DNA from: an uncultured Alphaproteobacteria bacterium
GTDB lineage: Bacteria; Pseudomonadota; Alphaproteobacteria; Caulobacterales; Parvularculaceae
DNA length: 64,000 nucleotides
Assembly: GCA_902826095.1 (NCBI GenBank)
Contig: CADEDN010000004.1
Coordinates: forward strand, 1 to 64,000
Direction: 5' to 3'
Positions 12,179-38,497 of this stretch are shown one piece after another (the first letter of the stretch is position 1; the number at the start of each line of letters is the position of its first letter). Under the pieces are notes generated by a model. The model saw only the letters and a program-made list of their open reading frames with translations, was not told the DNA's origin and ran no database searches. A program made the translations under genes and the position numbers.

Positions 12179-12189
12179 GGTCTGGGGGT

Positions 12190-13979: not shown

Positions 13980-14461
13980 TCGGCTGGTCTCGCCACAGGC
14001 TTCGCCTCATCCTGAGGAGCGCATCGAAGAGGCGCGTCGCGAAGGATGCCCGCGGCGGCGCCTTTGGTGACGTCGCTTTGCTGCTCCTCAGGGTGAGGCG
14101 AAACAGAACCGGCCTCATCCTGAGGAGCCTCGCGCAGCGAGGCGTCGCGAAGGATGCTTGCGGGGCGGACCCCGCGCCGCGAAAGCGCCTTCAACGCGGC
14201 CGCATCGCCGCGGACGAGCGCCTCCTTCTTGGCGCGGCTCCAGCCCTTCGATTGCCGCTCGGTCCGGATCGCATCGAACGCATTGGTGAAATAGTCCGAC
14301 CAGACGAGGTCGACCGGGCGGCGCTTGAACGTGTAGGCGGTTGGATGTTTCCCCGCATTGTGCTCGCCGACGCGCCACATCAGATCATGCCCCCGATAGC
14401 TGCCGACATAATACGATCCGTCGGCGCAGCGCAGCATGTAGACGAAGAGATCGTGCTTCAT
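13976..14461 (-). CDS. GIY-YIG nuclease family protein (core ~95 aa; C-terminal 60 aa is read-through of REP hairpins)
   Basis: FVYMLRCADGSYYVGSYRGHDLMWRVGEHN GIY-YIG motif; C-terminus encoded by repeated CCTCATCCTGAGGAG palindromes. Confidence 0.7.
   Translation of the reverse strand: MKHDLFVYMLRCADGSYYVGSYRGHDLMWRVGEHNAGKHPTAYTFKRRPVDLVWSDYFTNAFDAIRTERQSKGWSRAKKEALVRGDAAALKALSRRGVRPASILRDASLREAPQDEAGSVSPHPEEQQSDVTKGAAAGILRDAPLRCAPQDEAKPVARPAE
14111..14160. repeat. ~50-bp inverted terminal repeat (left) of GIY-YIG cassette: GCCTCATCCTGAGGAGC...CGTCGCGAAGGATGC
   Basis: inverted copy at 14458-14510 abuts GIY-YIG start codon; extra direct copy at 14002-14050. Confidence 0.65.
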
Positions 14462-14510
14462 CGATCATCCTTCGCGACGCGCCGCTTCGCGGCGCTCCTC
14501 AGGATGAGGC
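14458..14510. repeat. ~50-bp inverted terminal repeat (right) of GIY-YIG cassette
   Basis: CATCCTTCGCGACGCGCC...GCGCTCCTCAGGATGAGGC is the reverse complement of 14111-14160. Confidence 0.65.
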
Positions 14511-14544
14511 TTTCCCCTTGTCGCAACGATCGCCGCGAGCGCCC

Positions 14545-15555
14545 TCACCCCGCCAGCGCCTTCATGATCGCCTTTTGCACATGCAGGCGGTTTTCGGCCT
14601 CGTCATAGGCGATGCAGTTCTTCGAATCGAAGACCGCGTCGGTCATCTTGACGTTGCGGCGCATGGGGAGGCAGTGCGAGACGAGCGCGTCATCAGTCAT
14701 CGCCATCTTCTTTTCGTCGACGATGAAATGGCGGAAGCGGTCGCGGATCGCTTTTTCCGGCTCCCAGTTTCCGAAGAACGGCAAGGCGCCCCAGCTCTTG
14801 CAATAGACGATTTCGGCGCCGTCATAGGCCTCTTCGATGTCATGGGTGATCGTCAGCGCATGGCCGTTGGCGCCGCAATCCTTCGTCGCCTGCTCGATAT
14901 AGCGGTCGTCGAGAATGTAGTCCTCGGTCGGGCAGAGCAGCGTCACTTTCATCCCGAATTTCGCCGCCGCCATCAGCGCCGAATTGGCGACGGCGGTGTT
15001 CAAGGGCTTTGGATGATAGGTCCAGGTCAGCACATATTTCTTGCCGTCGAGCGGTCCGCGCCCGGCCTGCTCGAAGCGCTCCTTCAAGGCGAGGATATGC
15101 GCCATCTCCTGGCAGGGATGGGTGATCGTCTCGAGATTGATGACGGGGACGTCCGACCAGCGGGCGATCGCCTTCAGCACGCGGTCTTCCCGATCCTCGG
15201 CCCAGTTCTGGAATTTCGGAAAGGATCTGACGCCGATCAAGTCGGCGTAGCGCGAGAGGACCTTCGTCGCCTCCTTCACATGCTCTTCCGCCTCGCCGAG
15301 CATCACCGCGCCGTCCGCAAACTCCAGCGGCCACATGCCGCCGGTCGGGGAAAGGACGACCGCATGGCCGCCGAGCTGCGTCGCGCCGATGTCGAACGAG
15401 GTTCTGGTCCTCAAGCTGTTGTTGAAAAAGAGCAGCGCGATCGTCTTGTCCTTGAGGGCGTCGCCGATCGGGGATTTCTTCAGGCGCCGGGCGTCGGCGA
15501 GCATCGCCTCAAGCTCGGCTCTCGACCAGTCGGCGGTGTTCAGGAAATGTCTCAT
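14545..15555 (-). CDS. argF': N-acetylornithine carbamoyltransferase (AOTCase, ArgF')
   Basis: MRHFLNTADWSRAELEAML...FFNNSLRTRTSF...ITHPCQEMAH...HCLPMRRN; near-collinear with remembered Xanthomonas AOTCase. Confidence 0.8.
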   Translation of the reverse strand: MRHFLNTADWSRAELEAMLADARRLKKSPIGDALKDKTIALLFFNNSLRTRTSFDIGATQLGGHAVVLSPTGGMWPLEFADGAVMLGEAEEHVKEATKVLSRYADLIGVRSFPKFQNWAEDREDRVLKAIARWSDVPVINLETITHPCQEMAHILALKERFEQAGRGPLDGKKYVLTWTYHPKPLNTAVANSALMAAAKFGMKVTLLCPTEDYILDDRYIEQATKDCGANGHALTITHDIEEAYDGAEIVYCKSWGALPFFGNWEPEKAIRDRFRHFIVDEKKMAMTDDALVSHCLPMRRNVKMTDAVFDSKNCIAYDEAENRLHVQKAIMKALAG

Positions 15556-18442: not shown

Positions 18443-20683
18443 TTGATGGGGGCGCAGGAGAAAGGAGCGGGCGCGATGGCCGCAAAGGCGGACGCCTTGT
18501 CGCCGCGCCGGCTGATGCTCCTGACGGGCCTGCTTGTCCTTGCGATCGCCGTTCTTTTCTTCGGCAAGATCCAGGAAGAAAACGACGGACGCCGCGTCGA
18601 AACCGCGCTCCGGGTCGATCGCGCGGCGGGCGAATGCGGCGCGGCGGCGAATGTCGCGCTGATGACCGGCGACCCGGTCAGGAAGGCGCTGGCTTCTTGC
18701 GCGCCGGACGGCCTTGCGGCGGTCTATCATCTGTCGGCCGCGGGCGATGTTCTGTCGAGCGCTGGATCGGTGAAGAGCGCGCGCTTCGAGGCGCCCGACG
18801 CGCAAGGGCTTGCGCTTGTCGAGCGCGGCGCCGTCGTCATCCCGCTGAAGACCGGCAAATCCTTTGTCGCCTGGCGACCGCTCGACAATGGCGAGGCCGC
18901 GCTCGTCGCGGCGCCGGTCAATGATATCTACGCGCGCTCGCCGACCTGGGTGTTCTATCTGCTGGTCTTGTCGGCGGTCTCGGTCGCGATCGCGTCGCTG
19001 ATGGCGGCGTTCATTCGCCAGAGCCGGGCCGCCGCGCTCGCCGCCGGCGCCGTCGACGCCTTGCAGGCGATGAACGTCGCGCTCGCCTCGGGGCGCTCTG
19101 GAACCTGGTCCTTCGACCCGAAGGAGCGCAGCGTCACGATCTCGAAAACATTCCTTGAGGCGATCGGGCTTGGACAGCGCGATCGCAGCTTCACCATGCG
19201 CGAGATCACCGCGCTCGTTCACGCCGAAGATTTGCGCGGCGCGCTCGCCGTCATCACCGGCGACACCAGCGGCGTCGCCGAGGCGGTCGTTCGCCTTCGC
19301 CAGCCGGCCGGCGGCTGGACGCGCACTTTCTTTCGCACGTCGTCGCTGGCGACGCGGTTCAATCGCTCGGGCTCGGCGGTCGACCTCTCGGGGTCGAAAT
19401 CCGTCGCGCCGGGCGCCGCGATCGCCGAGGCGCGCCTCAAGGACGCGATCGAGAGCATCCCCGAAGCCTTCGTGCTTTGGGACGGACACGGACGACTAGC
19501 GGCGTTCAATCGGCGTTTCGCCGCGATCTTCCGCATTGATCCCAAAGCCATGCAGGCGGGGCTCTCCGCCGCCGAGGTCGTCGCGCTCGCGCCGGCGGGC
19601 GGCGAGGTGATCGCCAATTATTTCGCGCCGGACAGCGCCGTCGAGGAGCAGTCGGTCGAGGTCGAGCTGCCGAAGGACCGCTGGATTCTGATTTCAAGAC
19701 GGCGGACCGGCGAAGGCGGCCTTGTCTGCATCGCCTCGAACGCCACCGAAATGAAACGCCGCACCAGAGCCCAGAAAAAGAAGGAGCGCGAACTCGAAGC
19801 GACGGTGAACGATCTGCAGGCCTCGCGGCGCGACCTTTCGGAGACGATGCGGAATTACGAGCTTGAAAAGCGCCGCGCCGAGGACGCGAGCCGCTCGAAA
19901 AGCGAATTCCTCGCCAATATGAGCCACGAACTCAGGACGCCGTTGAACGCCATCAACGGCTTTTCGGAGATCATGCAGTCGGAACTCTACGGTCCGCTCG
20001 GCGACGAAAAATACCGCGAATATGTCGGCGACATCTTGTCGAGCGGCCAGCATCTCCTTGAACTCATCGACGACATTCTCGACATGTCGCGGATCGAGGC
20101 CGGCAAGCTGCAGCTCGAGCCCAAGCGCGTCGAGCTGGAGCGCATCCTTGAAGAATGCGCGCGGCTCGTCGCCAAGCGCGCGAGCGACGCCGGCGTCGCC
20201 TTGACCGCACATGTCGCGCATGCGCCGGCGATCTTCGCGGATGCGCGGGCGGTCAAGCAAGTGACGCTCAATCTTCTCTCGAACGCCGTCAAATTCACGC
20301 CGGCGGGCGGCGAAGTCACCTTGACGGCGGAGGCCGATCTTGACGGCGTCACGATCATCGTCGCCGATAACGGCTCCGGGATCGCCAGCGAGAACATCGT
20401 CCGCCTCGGCGCGCCGTTCGAACTGATCGAGGATCATTTCTCAAAGACGCGCAAGGGCTCGGGCCTCGGCCTTGCGCTCTCGAAGTCGCTGATGGAGCTG
20501 CAGGGCGGCATCCTCGCGCTGGCGAGCCAGGAGGGGAAAGGCACGGTCGCCTGCGCGGCTTTCCCCCGCCGGCGCGACGCGCGCGTCCGCCTGCCGCAAT
20601 TCATCCGCGACGACGCGCATGTGCTGACCGCGCCGACATCGCCCGCGCCGACGCCGCCGAAACATATCGAGGCGGCGGAGTAA
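18443..20683 (+). CDS. sensor histidine kinase (periplasmic sensing region, PAS, HisKA, HATPase_c)
   Basis: SKSEFLANMSHELRTPLNAINGFSEIM H-box; NAVKFTPAGGEVTL...DNGSGI...GSGLGLALSK ATPase boxes. Confidence 0.8.
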   Translation: MMGAQEKGAGAMAAKADALSPRRLMLLTGLLVLAIAVLFFGKIQEENDGRRVETALRVDRAAGECGAAANVALMTGDPVRKALASCAPDGLAAVYHLSAAGDVLSSAGSVKSARFEAPDAQGLALVERGAVVIPLKTGKSFVAWRPLDNGEAALVAAPVNDIYARSPTWVFYLLVLSAVSVAIASLMAAFIRQSRAAALAAGAVDALQAMNVALASGRSGTWSFDPKERSVTISKTFLEAIGLGQRDRSFTMREITALVHAEDLRGALAVITGDTSGVAEAVVRLRQPAGGWTRTFFRTSSLATRFNRSGSAVDLSGSKSVAPGAAIAEARLKDAIESIPEAFVLWDGHGRLAAFNRRFAAIFRIDPKAMQAGLSAAEVVALAPAGGEVIANYFAPDSAVEEQSVEVELPKDRWILISRRRTGEGGLVCIASNATEMKRRTRAQKKKERELEATVNDLQASRRDLSETMRNYELEKRRAEDASRSKSEFLANMSHELRTPLNAINGFSEIMQSELYGPLGDEKYREYVGDILSSGQHLLELIDDILDMSRIEAGKLQLEPKRVELERILEECARLVAKRASDAGVALTAHVAHAPAIFADARAVKQVTLNLLSNAVKFTPAGGEVTLTAEADLDGVTIIVADNGSGIASENIVRLGAPFELIEDHFSKTRKGSGLGLALSKSLMELQGGILALASQEGKGTVACAAFPRRRDARVRLPQFIRDDAHVLTAPTSPAPTPPKHIEAAE

Positions 20684-20685
20684 GA

Positions 20686-20852
20686 CCAAGTTGCGTTGGG
20701 GAAGGCTAAAAAAACCGTGTCATCCCGGGCGCGCCGCGGCATGACAATGCCGCGGCGCAGACCCGGGATCCCGCGCAATTTCGGGCCCTCGGCTGCACGG
20801 GGTCCCGGGTCTGCGCAGCAACACTACGTGTTGCAGCGCGCCCGGGATGACA
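20686..20852. mobile_element. truncated copy of ~258-bp MITE (left TIR ACCAAGTTGCG + palindromic core, right end missing)
   Basis: aligns to full copies at 31301-31557 and 38060-38327; begins 3 bp after HK stop codon. Confidence 0.65.
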
Positions 20853-20878
20853 ATCAATCAGATCGCAAAACAATCCGC

Positions 20879-21352
20879 CTACGGACTATCTGGCGGCGGC
20901 GGTCCCCGCCGCCTTTTCGCGCGGCGGTCGAGGTGATCGGCGAGCGCCTTGCGGTCAGCGGGCGAGAGCGCGCCCGCCGTCTCGACGAGAAGCCTTGCAA
21001 GATCGGCCCGGCCCGCAATTTCGACGGTCTCGATCTTGGCGACGATTTCGTCGGCGGCGGCGCGGTCGAATTCGTCGGCGCGCAGGACCGCGATGAGCTC
21101 CTCATGCAGCGCGCGCCCGGCGCGCCGTCTTTCGGCGCCGGCGTCGCGGCGTTCGGCGAAGGCTTTCTTCAGGGCCTCGCGCGCCGCCGGCGGCAGATCG
21201 GCGAAGTCTTCGGCGCCGCGATGATGAAAGCCGAAGCCCTGCGCCCCGCCGCGATGATGCGGGCCGCCGGCGATCTTGCCGGCGATCATGCCGCCCATGA
21301 AAACATTCGCCGCGAGCGACAGCCCGAGCGCGATGATCACTCCGCGGCCCAT
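20879..21352 (-). CDS. periplasmic protein (Spy/CpxP/ZraP-like LTXXQ-type sensor candidate) of ECF module
   Basis: signal-anchor MGRGVIIALGLSLAANVFM, His-rich helical body; last gene of sigma/anti-sigma operon; start uncertain. Confidence 0.45.
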   Translation of the reverse strand: MGRGVIIALGLSLAANVFMGGMIAGKIAGGPHHRGGAQGFGFHHRGAEDFADLPPAAREALKKAFAERRDAGAERRRAGRALHEELIAVLRADEFDRAAADEIVAKIETVEIAGRADLARLLVETAGALSPADRKALADHLDRRAKRRRGPPPPDSP

Positions 21353-21723
21353 GACGCGTCCTCCCCGGTGAAATCCAATGACTGGTCGATCGCTGTCGAC
21401 AATTCCGCATAGGCGTCGGCGCCGCCCGTCGTCGCCGCGGCGCCGGCGATAAAACCGCCGGCGCAAAGCGAACCGAGAAGACCCGCCGCCGCGATCGGCC
21501 GCGCCAGCGCGCGCCAGCCGAAGGCGTCGGCGAAAGAGGCGAGCGACAAACGCTCGCGCCGTCGTCGCTGATGCGTGTCGTAATCGGAGAGCAGCCGCGC
21601 CGCGAGATCAGGACCAAGGATCGCGTCGACCTCGCGCAGATGCGCGAGCGCCGCGTCGACCATCGCTTCGGCGCGCGCGCGCATCAATCCTGTCTCCTCG
21701 CCGTTCGTCATATCCTCTTTCAT
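21337..21723 (-). CDS. anti-sigma factor (DUF1109/NrsF-like, single TM)
   Basis: 128 aa directly downstream of and overlapping ECF sigma gene; C-terminal TM segment. Confidence 0.5.
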   Translation of the reverse strand: MKEDMTNGEETGLMRARAEAMVDAALAHLREVDAILGPDLAARLLSDYDTHQRRRRERLSLASFADAFGWRALARPIAAAGLLGSLCAGGFIAGAAATTGGADAYAELSTAIDQSLDFTGEDASWAAE

Positions 21724-22295
21724 CCGGAAGCCCCTTCCAGCAATTCATCGCGCAGCCCCGTCAGCGCCTCGCGCAAGGCGCGCCGGCCGCGCGTCAGCAG
21801 CGCTTCGACCGCTTCAACGCTGACATTCATCGCCGCCGCCGCCTCGATATTCGACAGATCCTGCAAGTGACAGAGCGTCACCGCGATCCGCTGACGTTCG
21901 GGGAGCGCCGCGAGCGCTGCTTCGACCGCCCGTCGCCGCTCATCCGTCGAAATCCGGTCGACCGCCGAGGGCGCGCCGTCGGCGATGTCGCCGGCCGCGT
22001 CCGCGCCAAGCTCGCGCGGGCGACGTCGCAGCCGGTCAAGGGAGGCGTTGGTCGCGATCCGGCACAGCCACGCCTCGAACCGGACGCCCTGCGGCTTCCA
22101 GCGCGAAGCGTTTTCCCAGAGCTTCATGAACGTCTCCTGCGCCGCGTCTTCAGCGCCGGACCGATCGCCGAGAATTCTGACGCACACGGCCATCACCCGC
22201 GGCGAATGCCGGGCGATAAGGGCTGACGCGGCGAGCCGGTCGCCCCGGCCCGCCCGCGCGACAAGCGCTTCGTCGCTTTCCTCATCGCCTGACAA
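21720..22295 (-). CDS. ECF-family RNA polymerase sigma factor
   Basis: sigma-70 region 2 (ETFMKLWENASRW...FEAWLCRIATNASLDRLRRR) and region 4 (RQRIAVTLCHLQDLSNIEAAAAMNVSVEAVEALLTRGR). Confidence 0.8.
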   Translation of the reverse strand: MSGDEESDEALVARAGRGDRLAASALIARHSPRVMAVCVRILGDRSGAEDAAQETFMKLWENASRWKPQGVRFEAWLCRIATNASLDRLRRRPRELGADAAGDIADGAPSAVDRISTDERRRAVEAALAALPERQRIAVTLCHLQDLSNIEAAAAMNVSVEAVEALLTRGRRALREALTGLRDELLEGASG

Positions 22296-22325
22296 GCACG
22301 CGCCCGTTCTCTTCCAGAGGCGCCT

Positions 22326-22739
22326 TTAATGCTTGTTCGATCCATGATGGCGCCGATGGCCGCGATGGTCAGCCATTTCCTCCTTGCTGATCAAGCCGTC
22401 GCCGTTCTTGTCGAGGTCGGCGAATTTGGCGCGCGCGGCGTCTTCGAATTCGCGCCGGTCGACGGAACCGTCCTTGTTGGCGTCCGGAAAGCGCCGCGCC
22501 TCGTGTTCGGCGCGGCGGGCCTCATGCATCGCCTTCATTTCGTCTTCGGTCAAAAAGCCGTCCTTGTCGGCGTCGGCTTCAGCGAGAAATTCCCTGTGGC
22601 GGGAATCGAGTTCGGACATCGCGACTTTGCCGTCGCCGTCCTTGTCGAAGCGGGAAAAATCGCCGCGCCGTCCTTCGGCGGCGGCCGCGCCGATGGCGGC
22701 GAGGCTGGCGAGCATGGTTAATCCAAGAATGGCTTTCAT
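22326..22739 (-). CDS. secreted EF-hand calcium-binding protein
   Basis: signal peptide then four DKDGDGKV / DADKDGFLT / DANKDGSVD / DLDKNGDGLIS EF-hand loops. Confidence 0.7.
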   Translation of the reverse strand: MKAILGLTMLASLAAIGAAAAEGRRGDFSRFDKDGDGKVAMSELDSRHREFLAEADADKDGFLTEDEMKAMHEARRAEHEARRFPDANKDGSVDRREFEDAARAKFADLDKNGDGLISKEEMADHRGHRRHHGSNKH

Positions 22740-22789
22740 CGATGTGTCCTTTGATTGCGGGTTTTCGTCCTCTTGGAAACTTAAACGCG

Positions 22790-23950
22790 CTAGCGGCGCG
22801 ATTCCGTCGCTGCGCGCGTCGTTTCCCGGAAGGCGGCGGCGAGCCGGCTTTCCGCCGTGTCGTGGAGGCGGGCCGGGAGCCGCATGCCGGGGGCCTCGGG
22901 CAGCGCGGCTTCGAGCGGCCGGTCGAGGGCCGCAGCGTCGATATCGGCGAAACAGAGCGCCCGGCGGAGCCTTGGCGAGAACGCCGCGGAAGTGACGCGC
23001 CCGACAATCTCGGCCCTTGCGTGGATCGTCGCCCCGACCGGCGCAAGATCGGTGTCGACCGTCAGCACGACCAGATAGCGGCGCGGATCGGCGGCGTTCT
23101 TCATCGCGCGCCGGCCGTTGAACCAGGCGCGGTTCGGCGGGGCGAGATGCGGCAGGCCGATTTCGTCCGGCATCCTTGCAGCGCCCGCGGCGGCGCGATC
23201 GGCGCTGACGAAATCGACGCCGGGGCGCGGCGCGCCGCCTTCGATCCTTAGAATGTCGAGGGCGTCGATGCCGGCGACCGGCAATTGGCGCTTGCGCTTC
23301 AGCCGCTCCCAGATCACCAGCGCGTCCTCCGCCGGATAGATGATTTCAACGCCGGGCGCCGCGCCGAAATTGATCGGGCGGATGGCGAGTTCGACGCCGC
23401 GCACGCGCCCTTGCGCCGACGCGTCCGCCGACAGGACGTCGATCCCCGCGGCGGCGGCGGCATCGCGCGCGCCGGGTCCGACAATCCCGAGCGCCGCGAC
23501 CTCCGCGCCGACATTGCTCACCGACGCCTCAAAGCCGCGCGCCGCGAGATCAAGGCGCCGGTCGGCGGGCGTCGCCGTCGTCAGCAGATAAAGATCGCCG
23601 GAAAGCCGCGTCAGATCCGCGAAATCGACGACCGCGCCGGCGGCGTCGAGGATGAGGCCGCGCGCGCTTTCGGCGACCGAGAGTTCGTTGACCGGCGTCG
23701 TCGTCAGCCGCGCGAGAACTTTCGCCGCGTCAAACCCGCGGACCGTGTAGCGGCAGAGCGGGCCAAGATCGACGAGCGCCGCGTCCTCGCTCGCCGCGCG
23801 GTATTCCTCTTCAACCTTGGCGTAGACGCGCGCCGCCGCCCAGCCATTGATCGCGGTCCAGCTGTTCGAGGTGGATTGCGACGCCGCCGCCGCGTAGAGC
23901 GGCGTCGGCCTTGGCGTCTTGCAGTCGTCGTCGCCTTGCGGGAAATGCAT
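22790..23950 (-). CDS. aminomethyltransferase (GcvT) family folate-binding protein
   Basis: 386 aa; GcvT-like fold motifs; last gene of a three-gene operon with two FAD oxidoreductases. Confidence 0.5.
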   Translation of the reverse strand: MHFPQGDDDCKTPRPTPLYAAAASQSTSNSWTAINGWAAARVYAKVEEEYRAASEDAALVDLGPLCRYTVRGFDAAKVLARLTTTPVNELSVAESARGLILDAAGAVVDFADLTRLSGDLYLLTTATPADRRLDLAARGFEASVSNVGAEVAALGIVGPGARDAAAAAGIDVLSADASAQGRVRGVELAIRPINFGAAPGVEIIYPAEDALVIWERLKRKRQLPVAGIDALDILRIEGGAPRPGVDFVSADRAAAGAARMPDEIGLPHLAPPNRAWFNGRRAMKNAADPRRYLVVLTVDTDLAPVGATIHARAEIVGRVTSAAFSPRLRRALCFADIDAAALDRPLEAALPEAPGMRLPARLHDTAESRLAAAFRETTRAATESRR

Positions 23951-25440
23951 CAGTCAAATCCGCCTTGCTTGAAAAAAGCGAGCGCGCGCTCGCCGGCGCG
24001 ACGGCCGGCCGCGAGGCTTAACGGGCCGCCGATCAGCGCTTCCGGGCCGCAGAAATAATAGCCTTCAAGACCGGACGCGCCGGTCAGAATTTCCCGCCGC
24101 TCAATCGCCGCAAGCGTCGGCGGCGCCGCGGCCTCCGGCTCGCCGATATCAATCGCCTCGATCAGCGACGCCGATCCGGGCGCGATCCGTCCGAAGGCGA
24201 CGCGCGAAGCGGCGTCGACGCTTTCGCGCCACCGCTCGTCGCCGGGCGGACGCAAGGCGACCGGATGAAGAAGGAGGCTCGCCGTCGCGCAGCCCTCGGG
24301 CGCGAGCCCCGCCTCGAGCGCGCTTGGAAAAATCAGTTCGGCGATCAACGGCGCGCCGCAGACGCCCTCGCCCGCAAGGCGAAAGGCGCGGTCAAGCTCG
24401 ATCGGCGCCGGCGCGTAAAGAAAGCGCCGGTCAAGCGCCGCGGCGGCGTGCGGATCAACGAGCGGGCCGCTGATCGCGAGATTGACGCGGACGCTGGCGA
24501 TCGCCGGAGACGGCGTCTCGACGACGCGCGCGAATTCGATATCAAGGCGCGCGCGGCCGACGAGATCGAAAAACGTCTCGCGCGCCGGCAGCGCCGAGAT
24601 GATGATCGGCGCGCGGATCTGCCCGCCATCGTCGAATTCAACGCCGGCGACGCGATCGAACTCAACGATGACGCTTTTGACGCGATCGGTCTGGCGGATG
24701 CCGACGCCGGCGGCCTGGCCGGCGCGCCGGAGCGCCTGGACAAGCCCGCGCCCGCCCCCTTCGATGGCGGCGACAGCGCCCTGCAATCCCGCCGCATCGC
24801 CCGCCATCCGCCGCAGCAGCGCGAGATAGGTGAACGGCTCCGACGGGCGCGAAGCGGCGCCGAGCGCGGCTTCCGCGCGCAGATAGTCGGCGATGCGCGC
24901 ATCGAGAAATCGCCCGGTCACCGCTTCCTCAATCGACGCGGCGGCTTTCTCCGTGCGCAGATCCGGCGCGATCGCCGGCTCGGCGCCGCCTGAAAACCAC
25001 GCCGCGAACTGCCGGGCGGTCTTGCGCTCGGCCTCGGCGTAGTCGGCGAATCTGTCCGCATCCGCCTCCGACATCGCGGCGATCGCCTCATGCGCGAAGG
25101 CCGGATCGCCGGGAAGGACGAGCGCCGCCCCGTCGGAAAAGCGCACGAATGTTTCCAGCCGGCGGCGCGCGAAGGCGAGACCATGGCGATAGAGGTCAAG
25201 CTGGTCGATCGTCTGCTGGTCGAGCGCCGTCGCGATCGGATCGCCGTCGGCGGCGTAATAATGGGGCGCGAATTCCGCCCGCTCGCGAAAGCGACCGGCG
25301 CCGGTTTCGATCAGGACGACATGAAGGCCGCCGCGCGCGAGGATCGCGGCGGCGGCGAGCGCGTCGACGCTGGCGCCGATGATGACCGCGTCGACGCCGC
25401 CTTCGATTTTCGGACCCGTCTTGCGCCGCAATTCAGTCAC
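23950..25440 (-). CDS. FAD/NAD(P)-binding oxidoreductase (phytoene-desaturase/amine-oxidase-like)
   Basis: VDAVIIGASVDALAAAAILARGGLHVVLIETG Rossmann dinucleotide motif; start uncertain (ORF overlaps upstream gene). Confidence 0.55.
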   Translation of the reverse strand: MTELRRKTGPKIEGGVDAVIIGASVDALAAAAILARGGLHVVLIETGAGRFRERAEFAPHYYAADGDPIATALDQQTIDQLDLYRHGLAFARRRLETFVRFSDGAALVLPGDPAFAHEAIAAMSEADADRFADYAEAERKTARQFAAWFSGGAEPAIAPDLRTEKAAASIEEAVTGRFLDARIADYLRAEAALGAASRPSEPFTYLALLRRMAGDAAGLQGAVAAIEGGGRGLVQALRRAGQAAGVGIRQTDRVKSVIVEFDRVAGVEFDDGGQIRAPIIISALPARETFFDLVGRARLDIEFARVVETPSPAIASVRVNLAISGPLVDPHAAAALDRRFLYAPAPIELDRAFRLAGEGVCGAPLIAELIFPSALEAGLAPEGCATASLLLHPVALRPPGDERWRESVDAASRVAFGRIAPGSASLIEAIDIGEPEAAAPPTLAAIERREILTGASGLEGYYFCGPEALIGGPLSLAAGRRAGERALAFFKQGGFD

Positions 25441-26695
25441 GGCGGACGATCTCCATCGCAAGGGCCGAGGCGGCGCCGATCGAATCGTGCGAGGGCGGCG
25501 GCGCCGGCAGCGGCGGGATGTCGAAGGAACGGCGCGCAAGCCCCGCCGCGACGTCAGGGCCGATCGTCACGGTGATTTCCCGCGGCGTTCCGAGCATCGC
25601 GCCGAGGCGCTGCTCAATCAGCGCCGCCGCCTGCCGGCCGAGAATTTGCCGGTCTTGTCCCGTCCACTCCCGAACCTCGCCATTGTCGCGCAGGCGCGCC
25701 GGGCAATAGGGCGCTTTCGCGATGATCTCCTTGCCGCGGATTTCAAAAGAGAGCGGCGCGTCCTCTTCGAACTTCCCTTCGATCATGCTGTTGCGCGCGC
25801 GGATGATCGCCTGTCGGTCGGCGGCGGTGAAATAGGCGGCGGCGGCGTCTTTGGCCGAGAGCTTGGGCTTTCTGTCATAGCGGATGCGGATCGTCGCTTC
25901 GGCGCCGCTTCGACGCAGCAGCGGCGAGCCGGCCGCGTTGACGCGGACGCCCGCCGCCTCCGCGAGGAGCGCCGACGACGCCATCGCGCCCCTCGCGCGC
26001 AATTCGCGGCCGTCTTCCATGCGGATCTTCCAGAATTTGCCGCCGTCGCGGGTGAGCGCCGCGAGGCGCCCGGCAAGCTGATCGACGCCCGCCGCCTGCG
26101 CCGCCGCCTTCAGCGCCTCGATCAGCGGCGTTGTCGCGGTCCGCCGATAGGGCCAGGCGCCGGCGGCGGCGAGCGCCTGCGCGGACCCGGCCTCGTCGCC
26201 GGCAAGTCCGCAGGGCGCAAGCAGCGCGCCGACGAGATGCGTTTTCAGATGTTCGTCGCGAAAATAATCGTCGAGCGCCGCGTTGGCGGACTGATACGGC
26301 CCGGGCCCGAGACCGCCAGCCGCCTCCCGCGTCGGCGCCGATCGTTTCATGTCGTCGATGAAGGCCGGCCACAAATGCTCGAGCGAGGCGTCGAGGGCGG
26401 CGAGCCGGCGGCCGGTTTCGCCGACGTCGTCGGTCGTCGTCAGCGCCGGCGCGCCATTGGCGAAGAAGGTCGTCCGCAGCGGGAGCGTTTCAAAGCGGAG
26501 GTCATATTGGTGAAGATCAAGCAGCCGCCAGACGAAATTCGGCGGCTCTGACGTCGCGGTCGCGTCGGGCGATTCAAGACCGGTCGGCGCGAGCGCGACG
26601 CTGGCGCCCGTGCGCGCGGCGCAGGCGGCGGCGGCGATCCCGGCCGCGTCCGCGCCAATGACGAGAAGATCGATCGCCGTTCGTTGCGCCATCAC
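25433..26695 (-). CDS. FAD/NAD(P)-binding oxidoreductase
   Basis: IDLLVIGADAAGIAAAACAARTGASVALAP GXGXXG motif. Confidence 0.55.
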   Translation of the reverse strand: MMAQRTAIDLLVIGADAAGIAAAACAARTGASVALAPTGLESPDATATSEPPNFVWRLLDLHQYDLRFETLPLRTTFFANGAPALTTTDDVGETGRRLAALDASLEHLWPAFIDDMKRSAPTREAAGGLGPGPYQSANAALDDYFRDEHLKTHLVGALLAPCGLAGDEAGSAQALAAAGAWPYRRTATTPLIEALKAAAQAAGVDQLAGRLAALTRDGGKFWKIRMEDGRELRARGAMASSALLAEAAGVRVNAAGSPLLRRSGAEATIRIRYDRKPKLSAKDAAAAYFTAADRQAIIRARNSMIEGKFEEDAPLSFEIRGKEIIAKAPYCPARLRDNGEVREWTGQDRQILGRQAAALIEQRLGAMLGTPREITVTIGPDVAAGLARRSFDIPPLPAPPPSHDSIGAASALAMEIVRRD

Positions 26696-29595
26696 AAAGG
26701 CGAACTCCTCGATCGCGAAGCCAGAACGATGTCAGCATAGACGTTTCGCGCCGCCGCTTCGAGCGCGACGAGTTTTGTTTCCGCCGCCTCAAGACTTGTC
26801 CCGCCGAAGATCGCCGCCATCATCCGCCGGACCTGATCGCCCGCGGCGCCGGGCGCAAAGACGCCGCCGGTCGCCGCCCGGCTCATCTGGTGAGCGGCCT
26901 CAAAGAGACGCGAGGCCTCCCGCAAATCCGCGGCCTGCGCGGCGGAGAGAACCCCGCCCGCTTCAAGTGCGTTGATCGCCGAGGGTAAATCGCTTCGGAT
27001 TGCGCCCGCCATCGCTAGAGGATGGGTCAAGATCAGATACTGAACCGTGAAATCGATCTCGACAAAGCCGCCGACGACCGCCTTCAGATCCCAGGGGCCA
27101 ATCGCCGGCTTGGCGCTTTTCAGCCTTTCGCGCATAGCGTCGACGTCGCGCGCGCAGGTCGCCGGATCGCGCGGGCGCGCCATGACCGCCGAGATTTCCG
27201 CCTCGACGCGGCGCGCGATCGCTTCGCCGCCGGCGATGACCCGCGCTTTCGTCAGCGCCATCAGCTCCCATGTCCAGGCGTCGGCGCCGTAATATTGGCG
27301 GAAGGCGGCGAGCGAGACCGCCGCCGGGCCTTTGGCGCCGGACGGCCGCAGCTGCATGTCCGCTTCATAGAGGACGCCTTCCTCGGTCGGGGTCGTCACC
27401 GCGGCGAGGTACCGGCGCACCAGCCGGGCGAAATAGGTGACGGCGTCGAGCTTTGCGTCGCCCGTCGCGCGCGCGTTCTCCGCCGCCTCATAGACGAACA
27501 TCAAATCGACATCGGAGGCCGCCGTCATCGCCTTGGCGCCGAGCCGCCCGAGCGCGATGATGGCGATCTCGCCGTCGATCCGGCCGAATTGTCGCTCGGT
27601 CTCGGCGACCGCCGCGTCGTAGAGCTCGGCGAGCGAGGTTTCCGCAACCGCGGTGAAGCGCGCCGCCGCATCGTCCGGCCTTATCAGGTCGGCGAGTAGC
27701 TGCGCCGAGATCGAAAAGGATTCCTCCGACGCCCAGCGCCGGACGCCATTGAGGATCTGCTCATGATCGTCCGCCGCCGCGAGTCTCGCCGCGAGCTTTC
27801 CCCGCAGCATTTCCGCCGAGGGCGCCGCGTCCGGCCATCGGCTTTCGATCAGCGACTCGGCGAGATGCGCCCGCCGCGCGACCTCGCGCGCGAGATAGGG
27901 CGACGCCGTCATGATGCGGATCAACCGGTCGAAAACGTCCGGTCGGTTCAAGAACAGCGAGAAGATCTGAACGCCGGCCGGCAGCCCCCGCAGGAAACCG
28001 TCAAACGCCGCGAAGGCGTCGTCCGGCGCGCCGGCGCGCGCCAGCGCTTCAATGAGCTGCGGCGTCACCCTGGCGAGGAGGGCGCGCGCGCGCGTCGATC
28101 GGGTGGCGCGGGTTTCGCCCGCATGCCAGCGGCGAAAGGCGTCGGCGATCTGTTCGGGCCGTTCAAAGCCGAGCGCCTTGAGCGCCGCGATCGTTTCTGG
28201 ATCATTGTCGACGCCGGTGAAACTGAACGAAGGCGCTTTCGGCCCCTGGCGCTCTTCCGGCTTGAACAGCGGCGCCGTCAGCTGATGTGTCGACCGGAAG
28301 ACGCCGGTCAGGCGTTCCTCGAACGTCTCAAGGCTTACTTCGCCAAGAAAAGCCGCAAGCCGCGCCGCGTCGTCCTCATTGATCGGGATGCGGTGGGTCT
28401 GTTCGTCGGCGATCATCTGCAGCCGGTGTTCGACCATCCTCAAATAGCAATAGCGCTCTTGAAGCGCCGCCGCGGTCTCTCGCTCGACATTGCCCGCCTG
28501 CGTCAGCGCCGCCATCGCCTCCAGCGTCGCGCGCGCGCGCAAGGCGGGATTTTTGCCGCCGGCGATCAATTGCTGGGCCTGCACGAAGAACTCGATCTCG
28601 CGAATGCCGCCGCGACCGCGTTTCAAATCAGCGCCGAAGAAGTCAGCTTCGCCGGCGCCCCTTCCCGCATGGATCTGGCGCATCACGGCGTGGACTTCCT
28701 CGATCGCCGCGAAGTCGAGATATTTGCGCCAGATAAAGGGTCGAAGGCGGCGGATGAAGTCTTCGCCGACCCCGATATCGCCGGCCGCGGCGCGCGCCTT
28801 GATGAAGGCCGCGCGCTCCCAGTTCTGGCCGTGCGATTCGTAATAGGCCTCGGCGGCGCCGACCGAAACCGCCGCCGCCGAAACGCCAGGATCGGGGCGA
28901 AGGCGAAGATCGGTGCGAAAGACATAGCCGTCCGCTGTCTGATCATTGAGGCGCGAGACCATGGCGCGCGCCGCCGCGACCGCGACGCGCTTGGCCTCGT
29001 CGCCGGCGCCGAGCGCCGGGCTCGCCTTGTCAAAGAGCACGACAAGGTCGATGTCGCTCGAATAATTGAGTTCGAAAGCGCCGTGCTTGCCCATGGCGAG
29101 GACGACAAGGCCCGAGCCTTCCTCGGGACGCTCGGCCTGCGCCGGGCGAAATCCCATTTTCTCCGTCTGGCGCAGCGCCATTCTGACCGCGGAGCCGACC
29201 GCCGCGTCGGCAAAGCGCGACAGACGCGCCGCCGATTCCATCGTCGTCGCCGCGCCCGAAATCTCGGCGAGCGCCGTTGAAAGCGCGGCGTCCGCCTTGG
29301 CGCGGCGGAGCGCCTTCATCTGCGCCCCCGCCTCGCCCTCGTCGGCCGCCCGCCAGGCGGCGTCGACGGCGCGCGCAAGGCTCGCTTCGGGCGAAGAAGA
29401 GAGCGCGAGGCGCGCGGTTTCCGGATAGCGGCTGATCAGCCTTGCAAGATAGGGCGAGCAGCCGGCGACGCCGAGAATGAAATCACTGGCGCCGTCGGCG
29501 CCGCCGAGGGCGGCGCGCGCGCGCTCGCCGGCGGCCCGGTCAACCGGCTTTGGCGCAAAGGCGATCAGCTTCGAAAGGGACGCGTCCTCTGGCAT
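26692..29595 (-). CDS. glnE: bifunctional glutamine-synthetase adenylyltransferase/deadenylyltransferase
   Basis: 967 aa; two nucleotidyltransferase domains (GKHGAFELNYSSDIDLVVLF and GRLGAKAMTAASDVDLMFVYE). Confidence 0.9.
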   Translation of the reverse strand: MPEDASLSKLIAFAPKPVDRAAGERARAALGGADGASDFILGVAGCSPYLARLISRYPETARLALSSSPEASLARAVDAAWRAADEGEAGAQMKALRRAKADAALSTALAEISGAATTMESAARLSRFADAAVGSAVRMALRQTEKMGFRPAQAERPEEGSGLVVLAMGKHGAFELNYSSDIDLVVLFDKASPALGAGDEAKRVAVAAARAMVSRLNDQTADGYVFRTDLRLRPDPGVSAAAVSVGAAEAYYESHGQNWERAAFIKARAAAGDIGVGEDFIRRLRPFIWRKYLDFAAIEEVHAVMRQIHAGRGAGEADFFGADLKRGRGGIREIEFFVQAQQLIAGGKNPALRARATLEAMAALTQAGNVERETAAALQERYCYLRMVEHRLQMIADEQTHRIPINEDDAARLAAFLGEVSLETFEERLTGVFRSTHQLTAPLFKPEERQGPKAPSFSFTGVDNDPETIAALKALGFERPEQIADAFRRWHAGETRATRSTRARALLARVTPQLIEALARAGAPDDAFAAFDGFLRGLPAGVQIFSLFLNRPDVFDRLIRIMTASPYLAREVARRAHLAESLIESRWPDAAPSAEMLRGKLAARLAAADDHEQILNGVRRWASEESFSISAQLLADLIRPDDAAARFTAVAETSLAELYDAAVAETERQFGRIDGEIAIIALGRLGAKAMTAASDVDLMFVYEAAENARATGDAKLDAVTYFARLVRRYLAAVTTPTEEGVLYEADMQLRPSGAKGPAAVSLAAFRQYYGADAWTWELMALTKARVIAGGEAIARRVEAEISAVMARPRDPATCARDVDAMRERLKSAKPAIGPWDLKAVVGGFVEIDFTVQYLILTHPLAMAGAIRSDLPSAINALEAGGVLSAAQAADLREASRLFEAAHQMSRAATGGVFAPGAAGDQVRRMMAAIFGGTSLEAAETKLVALEAAARNVYADIVLASRSRSSPL

Positions 29596-29640
29596 TGGAC
29601 GGGTTTTAGGCTGTTGCGCGCGAAGTTGGGAACTCTTCCT

Positions 29641-29664
29641 TCACCCCCCTTGGAAAGGGGGGCG
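29641..29664. repeat. REP family A hairpin (TTCACCCCCCTTGGAAAGGGGGG)
   Basis: matches 11190-11213 (inverted) and 50837-50859. Confidence 0.7.
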
Positions 29665-29688
29665 ATCGCATTTGGCGCTGCAATGCCT

Positions 29689-29812
29689 TCCCCTCTCCCG
29701 CTTGCGGGGTCGGACCATGTGTCCGACGGGCTGGGGGTGAGGGGGCGTCAACGAAGGGAATCCCCCGTTCAGACGCCCCCTCACCCTGCCCTCTCCCGCA
29801 AGCGGGAGAGGG
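29689..29812. repeat. REP family B composite palindrome (CCCTCTCCCGCNNGCGGGAGAGGG arms + GGGGGTGAGGGGGCGTCAA...GACGCCCCCTCACCC)
   Basis: same unit at 43512-43992 (x3 tandem), 44441-44666 and 50946-51073. Confidence 0.75.
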
Positions 29813-29857
29813 TGGGCGCCATCCAAGGAGAGGGAATCTGTTCCGTACACGCCCCCA

Positions 29858-31282
29858 TCAGACCTTCTCAAACGCCGGGAAGGCGATCGTCACCTTGAGG
29901 CCGCGGCGCTCGGCGTTTGACGAGGAATCGCCAAGCGCGATCGACGCGCGGTGCGCCCGCGCGATCGCTGAAACAAGCGAGAGGCCGAGGCCCGAGCCCG
30001 GCGTCGTTCGGCTTTGCTCAAGTCGGACGAAGCGCTTGACGACGCTGTCGCGGTCGGTTTCGGGAACGCCCGGCCCGTCATCGAGCACCGACAGCAAGAC
30101 GCGGTTTTCCGCGCCCTTGCGGACGTCGATCCGGATCGTCGTGCCGCCGATCGCATATTTCAGCGCGTTATCGAGAAGGTTTGAAATCGCCTGGCTGATC
30201 AGCGACCGCGAGCCGCGGATCGGCGGCGTCGGCGCCGTCTTGATCTGCAGGGTGAAGCCCGCGTCCTGCGCCGCCGGCTCGTAGAGTTCGGCCATCTCCT
30301 CCGCGATCGAGACGAGGTCGATCGCCTCCATATGGCCGGCGCCCTCGCCCGATTCGATGCGCGCGATCGACAAAAGCGCGTTGAAGGTCATGATCATGTT
30401 CTCGGCGTCGTCGAGCGTCGAGCGCAGCGCCGCTTCCTTCTCCGAGGGCGTGCTTTTCAGCGCGTCGTTCAGCCGCCCGCGGATGCGATTGAGCGGCGAG
30501 CGCAGATCATGGGCGATATTGTCCGAGACCTCGCGCATGCCGTTCATCAGGCGCTCGATCTGGTCGAGCATCGCGTTCAGGTTGATGGCGAGGTTTTCAA
30601 GCTCGTCGCCGGCGCCGGTCAGCGCGATGCGCTTGGAAAGATCGCCGTCGCGGATCGCTTTCGCCGTCCGGTTGACGCTGTCGACCCGCCTTAAAAGCGC
30701 GCGCGAGAAGACGAGGCCGACGATGATGCCGAGCCCGATCGTCGCCGCGCCGATGCGCGTCATCAGCGCCTGGCTTCGTTTGCGGAGCGCCTCGCGCGCC
30801 GAAATATCGCGGGCGACGAAGACGAGGAACGAGGTCTCGGCGTCGGGCGTCGGCTTGAAGCGGCGGATCTTGCCGCGCGCCTCGCGCGTGTCGATGCCGA
30901 TCTCGCGCCCGGCGGCGTCAAGGCGCGGGCGTTCGAAGGTGAAGTTGAAAAACCCCTCGCTGGCGGAGAGCGCCTCGGGCGGCAGCGCCGACAAATTCCC
31001 CGAAAGCACCGCGCCCGAGGGCGAGCCGATCAGCATGTAAAGCCCGTCGTCGCGCCAGGCCGCGCGCTCGCGAACGACGCGCCGCAGGACGCCTGCGCCT
31101 TCGGAGGAAAACACTTCCGAGAGGACGACGAGCTCCTGATCGACGATCTGGTCGGTCTGCTTCGACATCGCGCCGAACGTGTCCTGGTAGAACAACAGCC
31201 CGAGCAGCGCGACGGCGAACGCGAACACGAACACGTAAATGATCGTGAAGCTGAAAGTCGTCGTTCGGAGGATGCGGAACAT
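29858..31282 (-). CDS. sensor histidine kinase (2 TM, HAMP, HisKA, HATPase_c), partner of OmpR-type regulator
   Basis: REVSDNIAHDLRSPLNRIRGRL H-box; LDNALKYA...DDGPGV...GSGLGLSLV ATPase boxes. Confidence 0.8.
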   Translation of the reverse strand: MFRILRTTTFSFTIIYVFVFAFAVALLGLLFYQDTFGAMSKQTDQIVDQELVVLSEVFSSEGAGVLRRVVRERAAWRDDGLYMLIGSPSGAVLSGNLSALPPEALSASEGFFNFTFERPRLDAAGREIGIDTREARGKIRRFKPTPDAETSFLVFVARDISAREALRKRSQALMTRIGAATIGLGIIVGLVFSRALLRRVDSVNRTAKAIRDGDLSKRIALTGAGDELENLAINLNAMLDQIERLMNGMREVSDNIAHDLRSPLNRIRGRLNDALKSTPSEKEAALRSTLDDAENMIMTFNALLSIARIESGEGAGHMEAIDLVSIAEEMAELYEPAAQDAGFTLQIKTAPTPPIRGSRSLISQAISNLLDNALKYAIGGTTIRIDVRKGAENRVLLSVLDDGPGVPETDRDSVVKRFVRLEQSRTTPGSGLGLSLVSAIARAHRASIALGDSSSNAERRGLKVTIAFPAFEKV

Positions 31283-31300
31283 TGAAGGGATTAGGGATTA

Positions 31301-31557
31301 TACCAAGTTGCACTGAGTCCAACTCATTCGGCGAGGATCCCTTCTGCTTTTGAAAGTGTCATCCCGGGCGCGCTGCAACACGTAGTGTTGCTGCGCAGAC
31401 CCGGGACGGCGTGCAGCCAAGGGCCCGAAATTGCGCGGGATCCCGGGTCTGCGCCGCGGCATTGTCATGCCGCAGCGCGCCCGGGATGACACGGTATTCT
31501 CCTTTGAAGAGGTCCGGGAAACAGGAACGTCATGAGTCTTCTTCAACGCAACTTGGG
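31301..31557. mobile_element. full-length ~258-bp MITE (TIR TACCAAGTTGC / GCAACTTGGKA, long internal palindrome, TTA target duplication) in the RR-HK intergenic region
   Basis: terminal inverted repeats and ~95% identity to copy at 38060-38327; flanked by TTA on both sides. Confidence 0.75.
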
Positions 31558-31620
31558 ATTAGGCCTTGGGCGTCGGGGTCGCGCGCCTCCCCCTAACACC
31601 TAAAACCTCAAACCCAAAAC

Positions 31621-32304
31621 CTACTCGCCGTCGCCGATGGTGTAGCCGGCGCCGCGGATCGTTTTCAAAAGCGCGGTGTCGAAGTCCTTGTCGATCTTGG
31701 CCCTGAGGCGCGAGATGTGAACGTCGATGACATTCGTCTGCGGGTCGAAATGATATTCCCAGACGTTTTCGAGCAGCATGGTGCGCGTCACCACCTGGCC
31801 GGCGTGGCGCATCAGATATTCAAGCAGGCGGAATTCGCGCGGCTGCAGGTCGATCTTGCGGCCGGCGCGGCGGACGGTGCGGGTGATGACGTCGATTTCA
31901 AGATCGCCGACGGCGTAGCGCGTCGTCACCGCCGACGGGGCCTGATGGCGCCGCCGCCCCAAAGCCTCGACGCGGGCGATCAGCTCCGGGAACGCGTAGG
32001 GCTTGACGAGATAATCGTCGCCCCCCGCCTTGAAGCCCTTCACGCGGTCATCGACCTCGCCGAGCGCCGACAGGAAAAGCGCCGGCGTCTCGTCGCCGCC
32101 GGCGCGCCGTTTCGACAGCAAGCTGACGCCGTCGAGCTTTGGCAGCATGCGGTCGATCACATAGGCGTCGTAATCGCCGGCGCCGGCCATGTTGAGCCCG
32201 ACCTCGCCGTCCAGCGCATGATCGACGACATGGCCCGCTTCGCGCAGGCCCTTCGACACATGCGCGGCGGCTTCGGCGTCGTCTTCGACTACGAGGATTC
32301 TCAT
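31621..32304 (-). CDS. OmpR/PhoB-family DNA-binding response regulator
   Basis: MRILVVEDD...receiver Asp; C-terminal winged helix (VHISRLRAKID...IRGAGYTI). Confidence 0.85.
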   Translation of the reverse strand: MRILVVEDDAEAAAHVSKGLREAGHVVDHALDGEVGLNMAGAGDYDAYVIDRMLPKLDGVSLLSKRRAGGDETPALFLSALGEVDDRVKGFKAGGDDYLVKPYAFPELIARVEALGRRRHQAPSAVTTRYAVGDLEIDVITRTVRRAGRKIDLQPREFRLLEYLMRHAGQVVTRTMLLENVWEYHFDPQTNVIDVHISRLRAKIDKDFDTALLKTIRGAGYTIGDGE

Positions 32305-37651: not shown

Positions 37652-38497
37652 TCATATGTCGCCGACAATGAGCGCGCGCAGCTCGGACAAGCAGGCCGGC
37701 GTTTGCGGAAGGCCGGCGCGCTGCAGCTCGGCGAGGTAACTGTCAAATGAGATCGGCGGATTTCGATAGTGCTCGAAGTCCCATTTGACGGCGGCGAGGA
37801 ACGCAAGCTCGCCAATGCTCGCGACGTCGAGGATGAATTCGTCGGGATGGCGGGTATGAAGCCCGAATTTCGCGAGGATCTCCTTAGGGAAATCCTTCTC
37901 ATTAAATGTGACAATGACGCTTGCGTTCGCGCAAATCGCCGCGGCGAGTATCGGCCGGTCGCCCGCATCCGGCAAGGTCAGCGAATTCGCCAGCTCTTCA
38001 TATTCCTCGACCAGGCAATCAGGGACCGCGCGGTCCATCGCCGCGCGAGTTGCAACTAATACCAAGTTGCACGGGGTCCAACGCATTCGGCGAGGATCCC
38101 TTCTGCTTTTGAAAGTGTCATCCCGGGCGCGCTGCAACACGTAGTGTTGCGGCGCAGACCCGGGACGGCGTGCAGCCAAGGGCCCGAAACTGCGCGGGAT
38201 CCCGGGTCTGCGCCGCGGCATTGTCATGCCGCAGCGCGCCCGGGATGACACGGTTTTCTCCTTTGAAGAGGTCCCGGAAACAGGAACGTCATGAGTCTTC
38301 TTCAACGCAACTTGGTATAACGATGGCGGATTGAGATCGCTTCGCTTTGAGAGAACCGCCCTGATCCATTCTTCATGCACGTATTCCGACCAGCGCGCGC
38401 GGAACAAGCCCGTTTTCGCCAAAGAGACTACGAGACTTCTAAGGCGCGCGCCGAAGAAAACGTTTGAACCGAAGAACGCGGTGAAAGTGGAGATCAC
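37652..38497 (-). pseudogene. PIN-domain toxin gene carrying an in-frame 261-bp MITE insertion (87 extra aa between N- and C-terminal halves)
   Basis: N-terminal FFGSNVFFGARLRSLVVSLAKTGLFRARWSEYVHEEWIRAV and C-terminal LPDAGDRPILAAAICANASVIVTFNEKDFP halves match a PIN family paired with HTH antitoxins; the middle is MITE-encoded. Confidence 0.6.
38060..38327. mobile_element. full-length MITE copy (TIR TACCAAGTTGC..GCAACTTGGTA, TAA target-site duplication) inside PIN toxin gene
   Basis: TIRs, internal palindrome GTCATCCCGGGCGCGCTGC...GCAGCGCGCCCGGGATGAC, TAA flanks. Confidence 0.75.

Follow-up and report, generated by a model that had tools for sequence, protein, structure and literature searches.

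Several kinds of small bacterial repeat offer points of comparison for the element described here. Within the IS5 family of insertion sequences, members of the IS1031 group are reported to generate exclusively 3-bp target duplications, at 5'-TNA-3' (PMC12016507). The Correia (NEMIS) elements of Neisseria, together with ERIC and RUP, lie between co-transcribed genes, where they are able to change the processing of mRNA or to give rise to promoters (PMC10969869, PMC2229807); the CIR elements of Caulobacter and Brucella are outlined in the latter source as repeats of about 110 bp comprising two arms and a linker. Here we analyse a 258-bp element carried in several copies by a 64,000-nt stretch of DNA (contig CADEDN010000004.1, positions 1 to 64,000; hereafter the window) from an uncultured alphaproteobacterium. 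Taking the observations as a whole, the best explanation is very probably a non-coding MITE (miniature inverted-repeat transposable element) in which arms resembling the ends of an insertion sequence (IS) flank a core resembling repetitive extragenic palindromic (REP) sequences. The element, hitherto undescribed, is of a well-known kind, works like any bacterial MITE and is apparently confined to one uncultured Parvularculaceae-like lineage, a taxon taken from what its close homologues are called.

Like the MITEs of the IS1031 group, the element is small, non-coding and bounded by terminal inverted repeats, is flanked by a 3-bp T-N-A duplication (TAA, TTA and probably TCA) and occupies both genic and intergenic sites. 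It differs in starting with TACC, where the one group member compared has a GA/GG-type end (PMC12016507), and in harbouring a foreign, REP-like core. With Correia/NEMIS, ERIC and RUP it shares a length of the order of 100–250 bp and terminal repeats that pair into a long hairpin upon read-through; those elements, however, duplicate TA (2 bp), which is excluded for the element in the window (see below), and there is no sequence relationship. The likeness to REP sequences, REPINs and CIR elements resides in the core, which consists of two hairpin arms and a linker, and whose units stand alone after genes of other Alphaproteobacteria with their pairing maintained by compensatory changes, but the whole element has terminal repeats and duplications, features foreign to REP and CIR elements. 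We also considered membership of the CIR family on the basis of GANTC exposed in a hairpin loop. This hallmark, as given in the one description of CIR elements used for the comparison (PMC2229807), is missing from the core, which contains no GANTC.

As in Rickettsia palindromic elements, one copy lies in frame within a protein gene and a single frame is open throughout. Only one of three copies is genic, however, and a conserved acidic residue of the interrupted protein is substituted, so that the outcome resembles the death of a gene rather than the remodelling of a protein. Text searches of the literature for the terminal-repeat and core sequences returned unrelated papers only, and the accessions of the sequencing runs cited below led to no paper. 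The value of the element lies in being a small, clean case of a bacterial MITE for which sequence alone suffices to prove a 3-bp duplication, and in its two parts of different origin, which have a bearing on the way elements of this sort come about; the interest of the chimeric build is modest.

Copies and target duplications

The initial annotation proposed a new MITE family with TACCAAGTTGC ends and a 3-bp TNA duplication, present in three copies, all of which were found at the places named. Two are full elements of 258 bp on the forward strand. The first of these, copy 2 (31301–31558, one nucleotide longer than the end at 31557 originally given), comprises a left arm (31301–31357), a core (31358–31490) and a right arm (31491–31558), and its right terminal repeat departs from the left by a single mismatch, GGGA for GGTA. 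The second, copy 3 (38060–38317), lies outside the segment that the annotation covered and, as claimed, within a gene for a PIN-domain toxin; its left arm (38060–38116), core (38117–38249) and right arm (38250–38317) are bounded by perfect 11-bp terminal repeats. Copies 2 and 3 share the same orientation and differ at eight positions. With up to one mismatch allowed, TACCAAGTTGC occurs five times in the window, always at the end of an element, against an expectation of 0.20, a count reached in none of 100 shuffles; no further element bearing these terminal repeats is present in the window. The 11-bp repeat originally described is correct as far as it goes, but it continues imperfectly to about 27 bp, with 20 of 27 positions matching when the two ends are read inwards.

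Evidence that the element arrived by insertion is provided by copy 3. On either side stands the trinucleotide TAA (38057–38059 and 38318–38320), which on the gene strand is the Leu60 codon TTA, and copy 2 is bounded, as read from the sequence, by TTA (31298–31300 and 31559–31561). At a spacing of 261 nt the direct repeats are exactly these: TAA for copy 3 and TTA for copy 2. The open reading frame (ORF) containing copy 3 (37652–38497, minus strand) encodes 281 aa. Excising the 258 bp together with one TAA (261 nt) yields a protein of 194 aa with the features of PIN_3 and VapC50_C, for which there are more than 1,600 homologues of approximately 190–200 aa, the closest sharing 81% identity. Across the restored junction the alignment to a homologue is gapless (...NPPSL|VATRAAM... 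against ...NADSL|AATRAAM...). Because removal of precisely 261 nt restores a gapless 194-aa PIN protein, we regard the 3-bp duplication at copy 3 as proven at the level of sequence.

Three other definitions of the duplication were tried and rejected. If the ends were CC...GG and the duplication TA (2 bp), five surplus nucleotides would remain and shift the PIN frame; if they were ACC...GGT and the duplication AT, one surplus codon would remain. Both contradict the gapless alignment. An apparent 7-bp duplication, GGGATTA, at copy 2 resolves into TTA plus the mutated element end GGGA, next to a flanking GGGATTA in tandem.

The element is read through in the PIN gene, one frame being open along its entire length; copy 3 is both genic and in frame, and the gene gains 87 in-frame codons after Leu60. 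In addition, codon 10 of the gene (in the region of 38469) specifies Gly (FFGSNVF), at a position where Asp (FFDSNVF) is found in each of the nine full-length homologues that were aligned; we take this Asp to be the first conserved acidic residue of PIN domains. Given both the 87 codons that split the gene and the substitution at position 10, the toxin is probably inactive, as judged from its predicted protein. The adjacent HTH_17/excisionase-type gene (38499–38954, minus strand), the presumed antitoxin partner, is intact. In relatives the helix-turn-helix (HTH) and PIN gene pair directly follows a head-tail cluster like that of a gene-transfer agent (Phage_capsid ... GTA_TIM/Phage-tail_3; contig L028, 306–4825, and contig L029, 1–9999), and a similar arrangement is likely beyond 38954 in the window.

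The remaining copy, copy 1 (20684–20852, minus strand), is opposite in orientation to the other two and is old and decayed. It starts with the terminal repeat GACCAAGTTGC (20684–20694), continues as a right arm to 20718 from which 33 nt have been deleted, and ends with a core of 133 bp (20719–20851) at 96% identity; the left arm is absent. Copy 1 lies between convergent genes for a PAS-domain kinase and a Metal_resist protein. The former (18443–20683, plus strand; PAS/HisKA/HATPase) is a histidine kinase whose relatives are named PleC by JGI, and the element directly abuts its TAA stop codon (20681–20683), not 3 bp beyond it as had been thought. Beside the truncated end, in the 3' end of the Metal_resist gene, the 15-mer TCCGCCTACGGACTA (20873–20887) is found on the opposite strand in the related contig L035 (5441–5455), and the C-terminal residues differ along with this micro-inversion (PPPDSP* in the window, DPPPTD* in L035). 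A large inversion as the cause of the truncation was considered and is ruled out, the inverted segment being only 15 nt.

A fourth locus (58238–58328, plus strand), intergenic and made up of right arm and part of the core, is a probable relic in an advanced state of decay. It was detected with profiles of the whole element (nhmmer, E=0.0013) and of the right arm (E=0.0014), whereas plain local alignment was not significant. The relic ends 8 nt from the 3' end of an ORF on the minus strand (58336–59517).

The corresponding sites in related contigs, which share 81–87% nucleotide identity with the window, lack the element. The JGI contig L028 is syntenic across the HTH, PIN, DnaJ, DegP, response regulator (RR), histidine kinase (HK) and GlnE genes; its PIN gene is intact, and its RR–HK spacer of 131 nt has, on the gene strand, a single TAA at the point where the window has TAA, element and TAA. 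In L035 the orthologue of the PAS (PleC-like) kinase is separated from the same downstream Metal_resist gene by a 115-nt spacer, again without the element. The conservation at orthologous positions that would mark a regulatory sequence, a possibility raised at the outset, was thus not found. We judge the contigs close enough, by their sequence, to indicate insertion over conservation, and because the matching sites are free of it the element is an insertion rather than a conserved regulatory sequence.

A further copy was found beyond the contig from which the window is taken. When the open frame of the element was compared by phmmer to 1.84 billion representative proteins, the only strong match was another copy read through as an ORF: the 201-aa NCBI protein P0241, encoded on a contig of 130,194 nt distinct from the 209,176-nt contig of the window. 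It contains all 86 element codons at 94% identity between different flanks, with Ser on either side, an arrangement consistent with a 3-bp TCA duplication. Along with the exact restoration of the PIN gene and the element-free sites in relatives, this copy bears out the proposal of a new MITE family.

For annotation the element accounts for one pseudogene (the split PIN toxin), for spurious ORFs and for breaks in short-read assemblies. The spurious ORFs are the 281-aa read-through and one predicted across copy 2 (31298–31546), which the initial annotation had noted and which is indeed present, on the minus strand. As to the breaks, Logan assemblies of four runs from the same organism (ERR3089230 and ERR3089232–34) contain one flank–element junction per copy for all three copies, copy-specific variants included, and their contigs terminate some 30–80 nt inside the element because it is a repeat.

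Arms, core and mobilisation

The 258 bp divide into arms of 57 and 68 bp and a core of 133 bp that differ markedly in composition: the GC-content of the arms is 47–48% and that of the core 71%, in a window of 65%. The interior, described at first as a long perfect palindrome, is not one; at the outer sides of the core, arms of 19 bp pair perfectly. Enclosed between them are two inverted hairpin units of about 50 nt with different loops, joined by a 31-nt linker. The 19-mer at the core ends has six matches in the window against 0.15 expected.

Units of the core are by no means peculiar to this organism. A 50-nt unit of the form GTCATCCCGGGCGCGCTGC – small hairpin – GCnGCGCAGACCCGGGA is present in 23 metagenome or NCBI loci and on one plasmid of Terrarubrum flagellatum, where the match (from PLSDB) covers half of the core; in every case the arms are absent. 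Intergenic palindromes that begin with the core unit and stand alone measure 77–158 bp where both ends could be delimited (mostly 113–158 bp) and are bounded by GTCATCC...GGATGAC. They are usually located just past a stop codon and sometimes in tandem, never have TACCAAGTTGC ends and show no duplications of their own. Elsewhere (L011, 2400–2800) stand-alone elements of this type are arrayed in tandem at intervals of about 156 nt. In other genomes spurious ORFs extend across arrays of core-like units (P0242 and P0243), and such arrays are annotated as hypothetical proteins of about 200 aa rich in RGPGSAPHHCVLRRVRDD.

Folded singly, the core units reach −27 to −44 kcal/mol. Covariation was judged on those pairs of the apical stem that the search pattern for the units had not fixed. 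Among 22 distinct units all five pairs left free show changes on both sides, the covariation score was attained in none of 500 shuffles, and sliding the register lowered the paired fraction to 30–47%. The hairpins of the core are therefore maintained by compensatory change.

The arms, by comparison, were found in this element only. A blastn search of PLSDB with the whole element and with each arm gave no relevant matches, those beyond the half-core being chance 19–22-mers. The exact pattern of the right end had one chance match, in a Lentilactobacillus, among 185,579 GTDB representative genomes; the left-arm pattern had none in JGI metagenomes, and neither arm pattern had any in IMG/VR. The arms were likewise absent from approximately 250 kb of related loci. 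A six-frame translation of the element, compared to 5.8 billion proteins by word-indexed search, returned nothing at E<=0.001, and Rfam has no family for the element, offering just sub-threshold matches to generic hairpins. (At the gathering threshold Rfam matches nothing in the window except two adjacent tRNA genes, at 9075–9217.) The sequence AAGGAG-N6-GTG (31504–31490), found at the inner end of the right arm when the reverse strand is read, resembles a ribosome-binding site followed by a start codon, as if left over from a lost transposase gene.

In the window and in about 45 kb of syntenic DNA from relatives the core occurs exclusively within the element. Since arms and core differ in GC-content, since core units stand alone elsewhere, and since the core is here restricted to the interior of the element, the sequences identify the element as a chimera in which a REP-like double hairpin is set between IS-like arms, the hairpin being by the same evidence a separate and widespread REP-like module.

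The arms also contain GAGTC, a form of GANTC, the motif methylated by CcrM in Alphaproteobacteria. It is found at 31315 and 31534 (both arms of copy 2) and at 38293 (right arm of copy 3), each time inside the imperfect terminal repeat. GANTC occurs in the window at 1.36 sites per kb, hence there is no enrichment in the arms; that transposition might be gated by methylation of these sites is worth a thought but speculative.

How did the element spread? It has 258 bp without coding capacity, terminal inverted repeats and a duplication of fixed length, and it occurs at several unrelated loci with element-free counterparts in relatives, which are the attributes of a MITE. The terminal repeats, taken with a T-N-A duplication fixed at 3 bp, are indicative of mobilisation in trans by a DDE transposase. 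Such an enzyme would identify its substrate by the terminal repeats (perfect over 11 bp, imperfect over about 27 bp) and cut T-N-A targets with a stagger of 3 bp, from which the duplication would result. The AT-richer arms of 57 and 68 bp may be the ends of an insertion sequence whose transposase gene has since been lost, with the GC-rich 133-bp core of two inverted units having come to sit between them. The class of the transposase, the origin of the arms and the way in which the core got inside are matters that we infer.

The duplications TAA and TTA match the 3-bp TNA signature of the IS1031 group, and this is the one feature that would tie the element to that group, which it fits. Of the two transposase types originally suggested, IS5-family (IS1031-like) and IS630-like, the first accordingly agrees with the duplication only; the second, a derivative of IS630/Tc1-mariner, is ruled out by the reading frame and length of the PIN gene because the 2-bp TA duplication that it entails contradicts the gapless alignment. 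As had been stated at the outset, the window contains neither a transposase gene nor a longer element with these ends.

A number of observations weigh against a MITE of this description. The ends of the element (TACC...) do not resemble the one IS1031-group end compared, GAACCTGTCTAGTATCT (GAACCTG...; PMC12016507). The window, the roughly 250 kb of related loci and the PLSDB plasmids yielded neither an autonomous element nor a transposase with matching ends, nor did a parent with matching ends emerge from the GTDB representatives (searched for one end, as an exact pattern), the JGI metagenomes or IMG/VR. The copies known amount to four or five, all from one organism, and the comparison sites belong to different species as opposed to strains of one species. 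Finally, the homology of copy 1 ends within 1–2 nt of the core boundary, unlike a simple truncation; a deletion promoted by the hairpin is suggested, and it is the sole explanation that we can offer.

The regulator–kinase spacer and rival explanations

Copy 2 occupies the spacer between the genes of a two-component pair, in the order DegP, RR, HK and GlnE. Upstream is a gene for an OmpR-family response regulator (31621–32304, minus strand) and downstream one for a histidine kinase (29858–31282, minus strand; HAMP/HisKA/HATPase), the ATG of which is 18 nt from the end of the element. The spacer, given correctly at the outset as 338 bp, contains 261 nt of insertion and would have measured 77 nt before it. 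MITEs in such positions are well known, and copy 2 constitutes a natural test of whether a large hairpin alters the stoichiometry of regulator and kinase.

The most serious rival is a supplement to the MITE explanation, not a substitute for it: copy 2 would have been co-opted, its hairpin serving as a processing site for RNase III or RNase E or as a 3' stabiliser that raises regulator over kinase, or else the sequence TGGTATAAT serving as a new kinase promoter. In favour of this are the strong predicted folds, −143 kcal/mol (z = −8.2) for the element alone and −172 kcal/mol (z = −8.5) for read-through RNA spanning the whole spacer, as well as precedent, in that cleavage of Correia elements by RNase III and effects of RNase E on ERIC elements are documented (PMC10969869). 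All three copies in the window also share the same orientation relative to the transcription of the neighbouring gene, but for three of three copies this has a chance probability of 0.25. Consensus scans of copy 2 and the spacer detected neither a terminator-like site nor a sigma-70-type promoter, and the tract following the hairpin is not U-rich in either orientation. Copy 2 is not a canonical terminator.

The candidate promoter merits separate mention. TGGTATAAT (31297–31305, minus strand) matches the consensus of an extended −10 element and joins TGGTA from the end of the element to the duplicated TAA and one T of the flank; insertion at any TAA or TTA target creates TGGTATAAn on one side. 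It ends 14 nt upstream of the kinase ATG and was passed over by the sigma-70 scan for want of a −35. A promoter function would be speculative. Alphaproteobacterial promoters need not conform to the −10 consensus of E. coli.

The spacer itself argues for tolerance. In relatives it is 131 nt (L028) or 215 nt (L037, 3185–3399; also L041, 1524–1698). The regulator of the latter is 96.5% identical in protein, and its spacer contains two palindromes, likewise unrelated, GAGCAAGTTTCGCGC...GCGCGAAGTTTGCTC and GGGCGTTTTCTTCGATCAA...TTGATCGGAAAACGCCC. It is within the second of these that many Logan contigs stop, a hint that a further small repeat has settled in this same spacer. Because the spacers of relatives are so variable and laden with repeats, the site looks, on sequence comparison, tolerant of insertions and not finely tuned, a permissive dumping ground.

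On balance we think co-option unlikely, if worth keeping in view. Copy 2 is most plausibly a passive passenger, which may nevertheless protect the mRNA of the upstream regulator or offer a site for RNase cleavage. The role of attenuator or insulator first proposed for it would be speculation, and a real regulatory effect on the pair is doubtful. A more elaborate scenario has a transposase-driven MITE capturing a REP-like double hairpin, which thereby gained a second, DDE-based means of dispersal; each insertion would deliver an RNA structure and, at TAA or TTA, an outward-facing TGGTATAAn as well, and copy 2 would have reset the ratio of regulator to kinase. As a complete account this is a long shot.

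Less probable still, and to our minds very unlikely, is that the element is a palindrome of the REP or REPIN type that owes its dispersal to a tyrosine transposase (RAYT) or to recombination, with the terminal repeats and duplications incidental. The core is indeed an inverted doublet of hairpin units, as in a REPIN, and the related units that stand alone after genes or in tandem arrays elsewhere do so without duplications of their own. Yet in this organism the core is found only between arms; the homology of copies 2 and 3 spans both arms and ends exactly at the terminal repeats, outside which are the 3-bp direct repeats; and the insertion in the PIN gene has precisely the length of arms plus core plus 3 nt.

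Two remaining explanations are hardly credible. That the element is a conserved cis-regulatory RNA or DNA element belonging to these genes (an attenuator, a riboswitch-like leader or a protein-binding site) might be thought from its strong structure and from the signalling genes that it adjoins at two of three sites, but its absence from orthologous positions in relatives refutes this in practice; further, a coding sequence is interrupted by one of the copies, Rfam offers no matching family and the neighbouring genes have unrelated functions. Misplacement of a repeat in the building of a metagenome-assembled genome, conceivable for a metagenome-derived contig when short-read assemblies break at the element, is countered by the separate Logan assemblies, whose four runs reproduce the flank–element junctions of all three copies with their copy-specific variants, and by the duplications and the exact in-frame insertion of 261 nt, which are unlike mis-joins.

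Other repeats in the window

Repeats other than the MITE are present in the window. A second, unrelated family has a mosaic structure (CCCCTCTCCCGCTTGCGGGAGAGGGG..., GGGGGTGAGGGGGCGTCAA..., CCCCCCTTGGAAAGGGGGG) and is clustered at 29634–29820, 43501–44665, 50825–51072 and 11167–11225; one of its clusters has the GlnE gene on one side and the HAMP kinase gene, by its 3' end, on the other. A direct repeat of 248 nt with 98% identity (51107–51354 and 53973–54220), the copies of which are 2866 nt apart, may be a duplicated gene segment. Inverted repeats are found at 12173–12644 and 13964–14550: one contains runs of heptamers of the GTGGTTA/GTGGCTA type, and one, built on GCCTCATCCTGAGGAGC...CATCCTTCGCGACGC, looks like another palindromic intergenic element.

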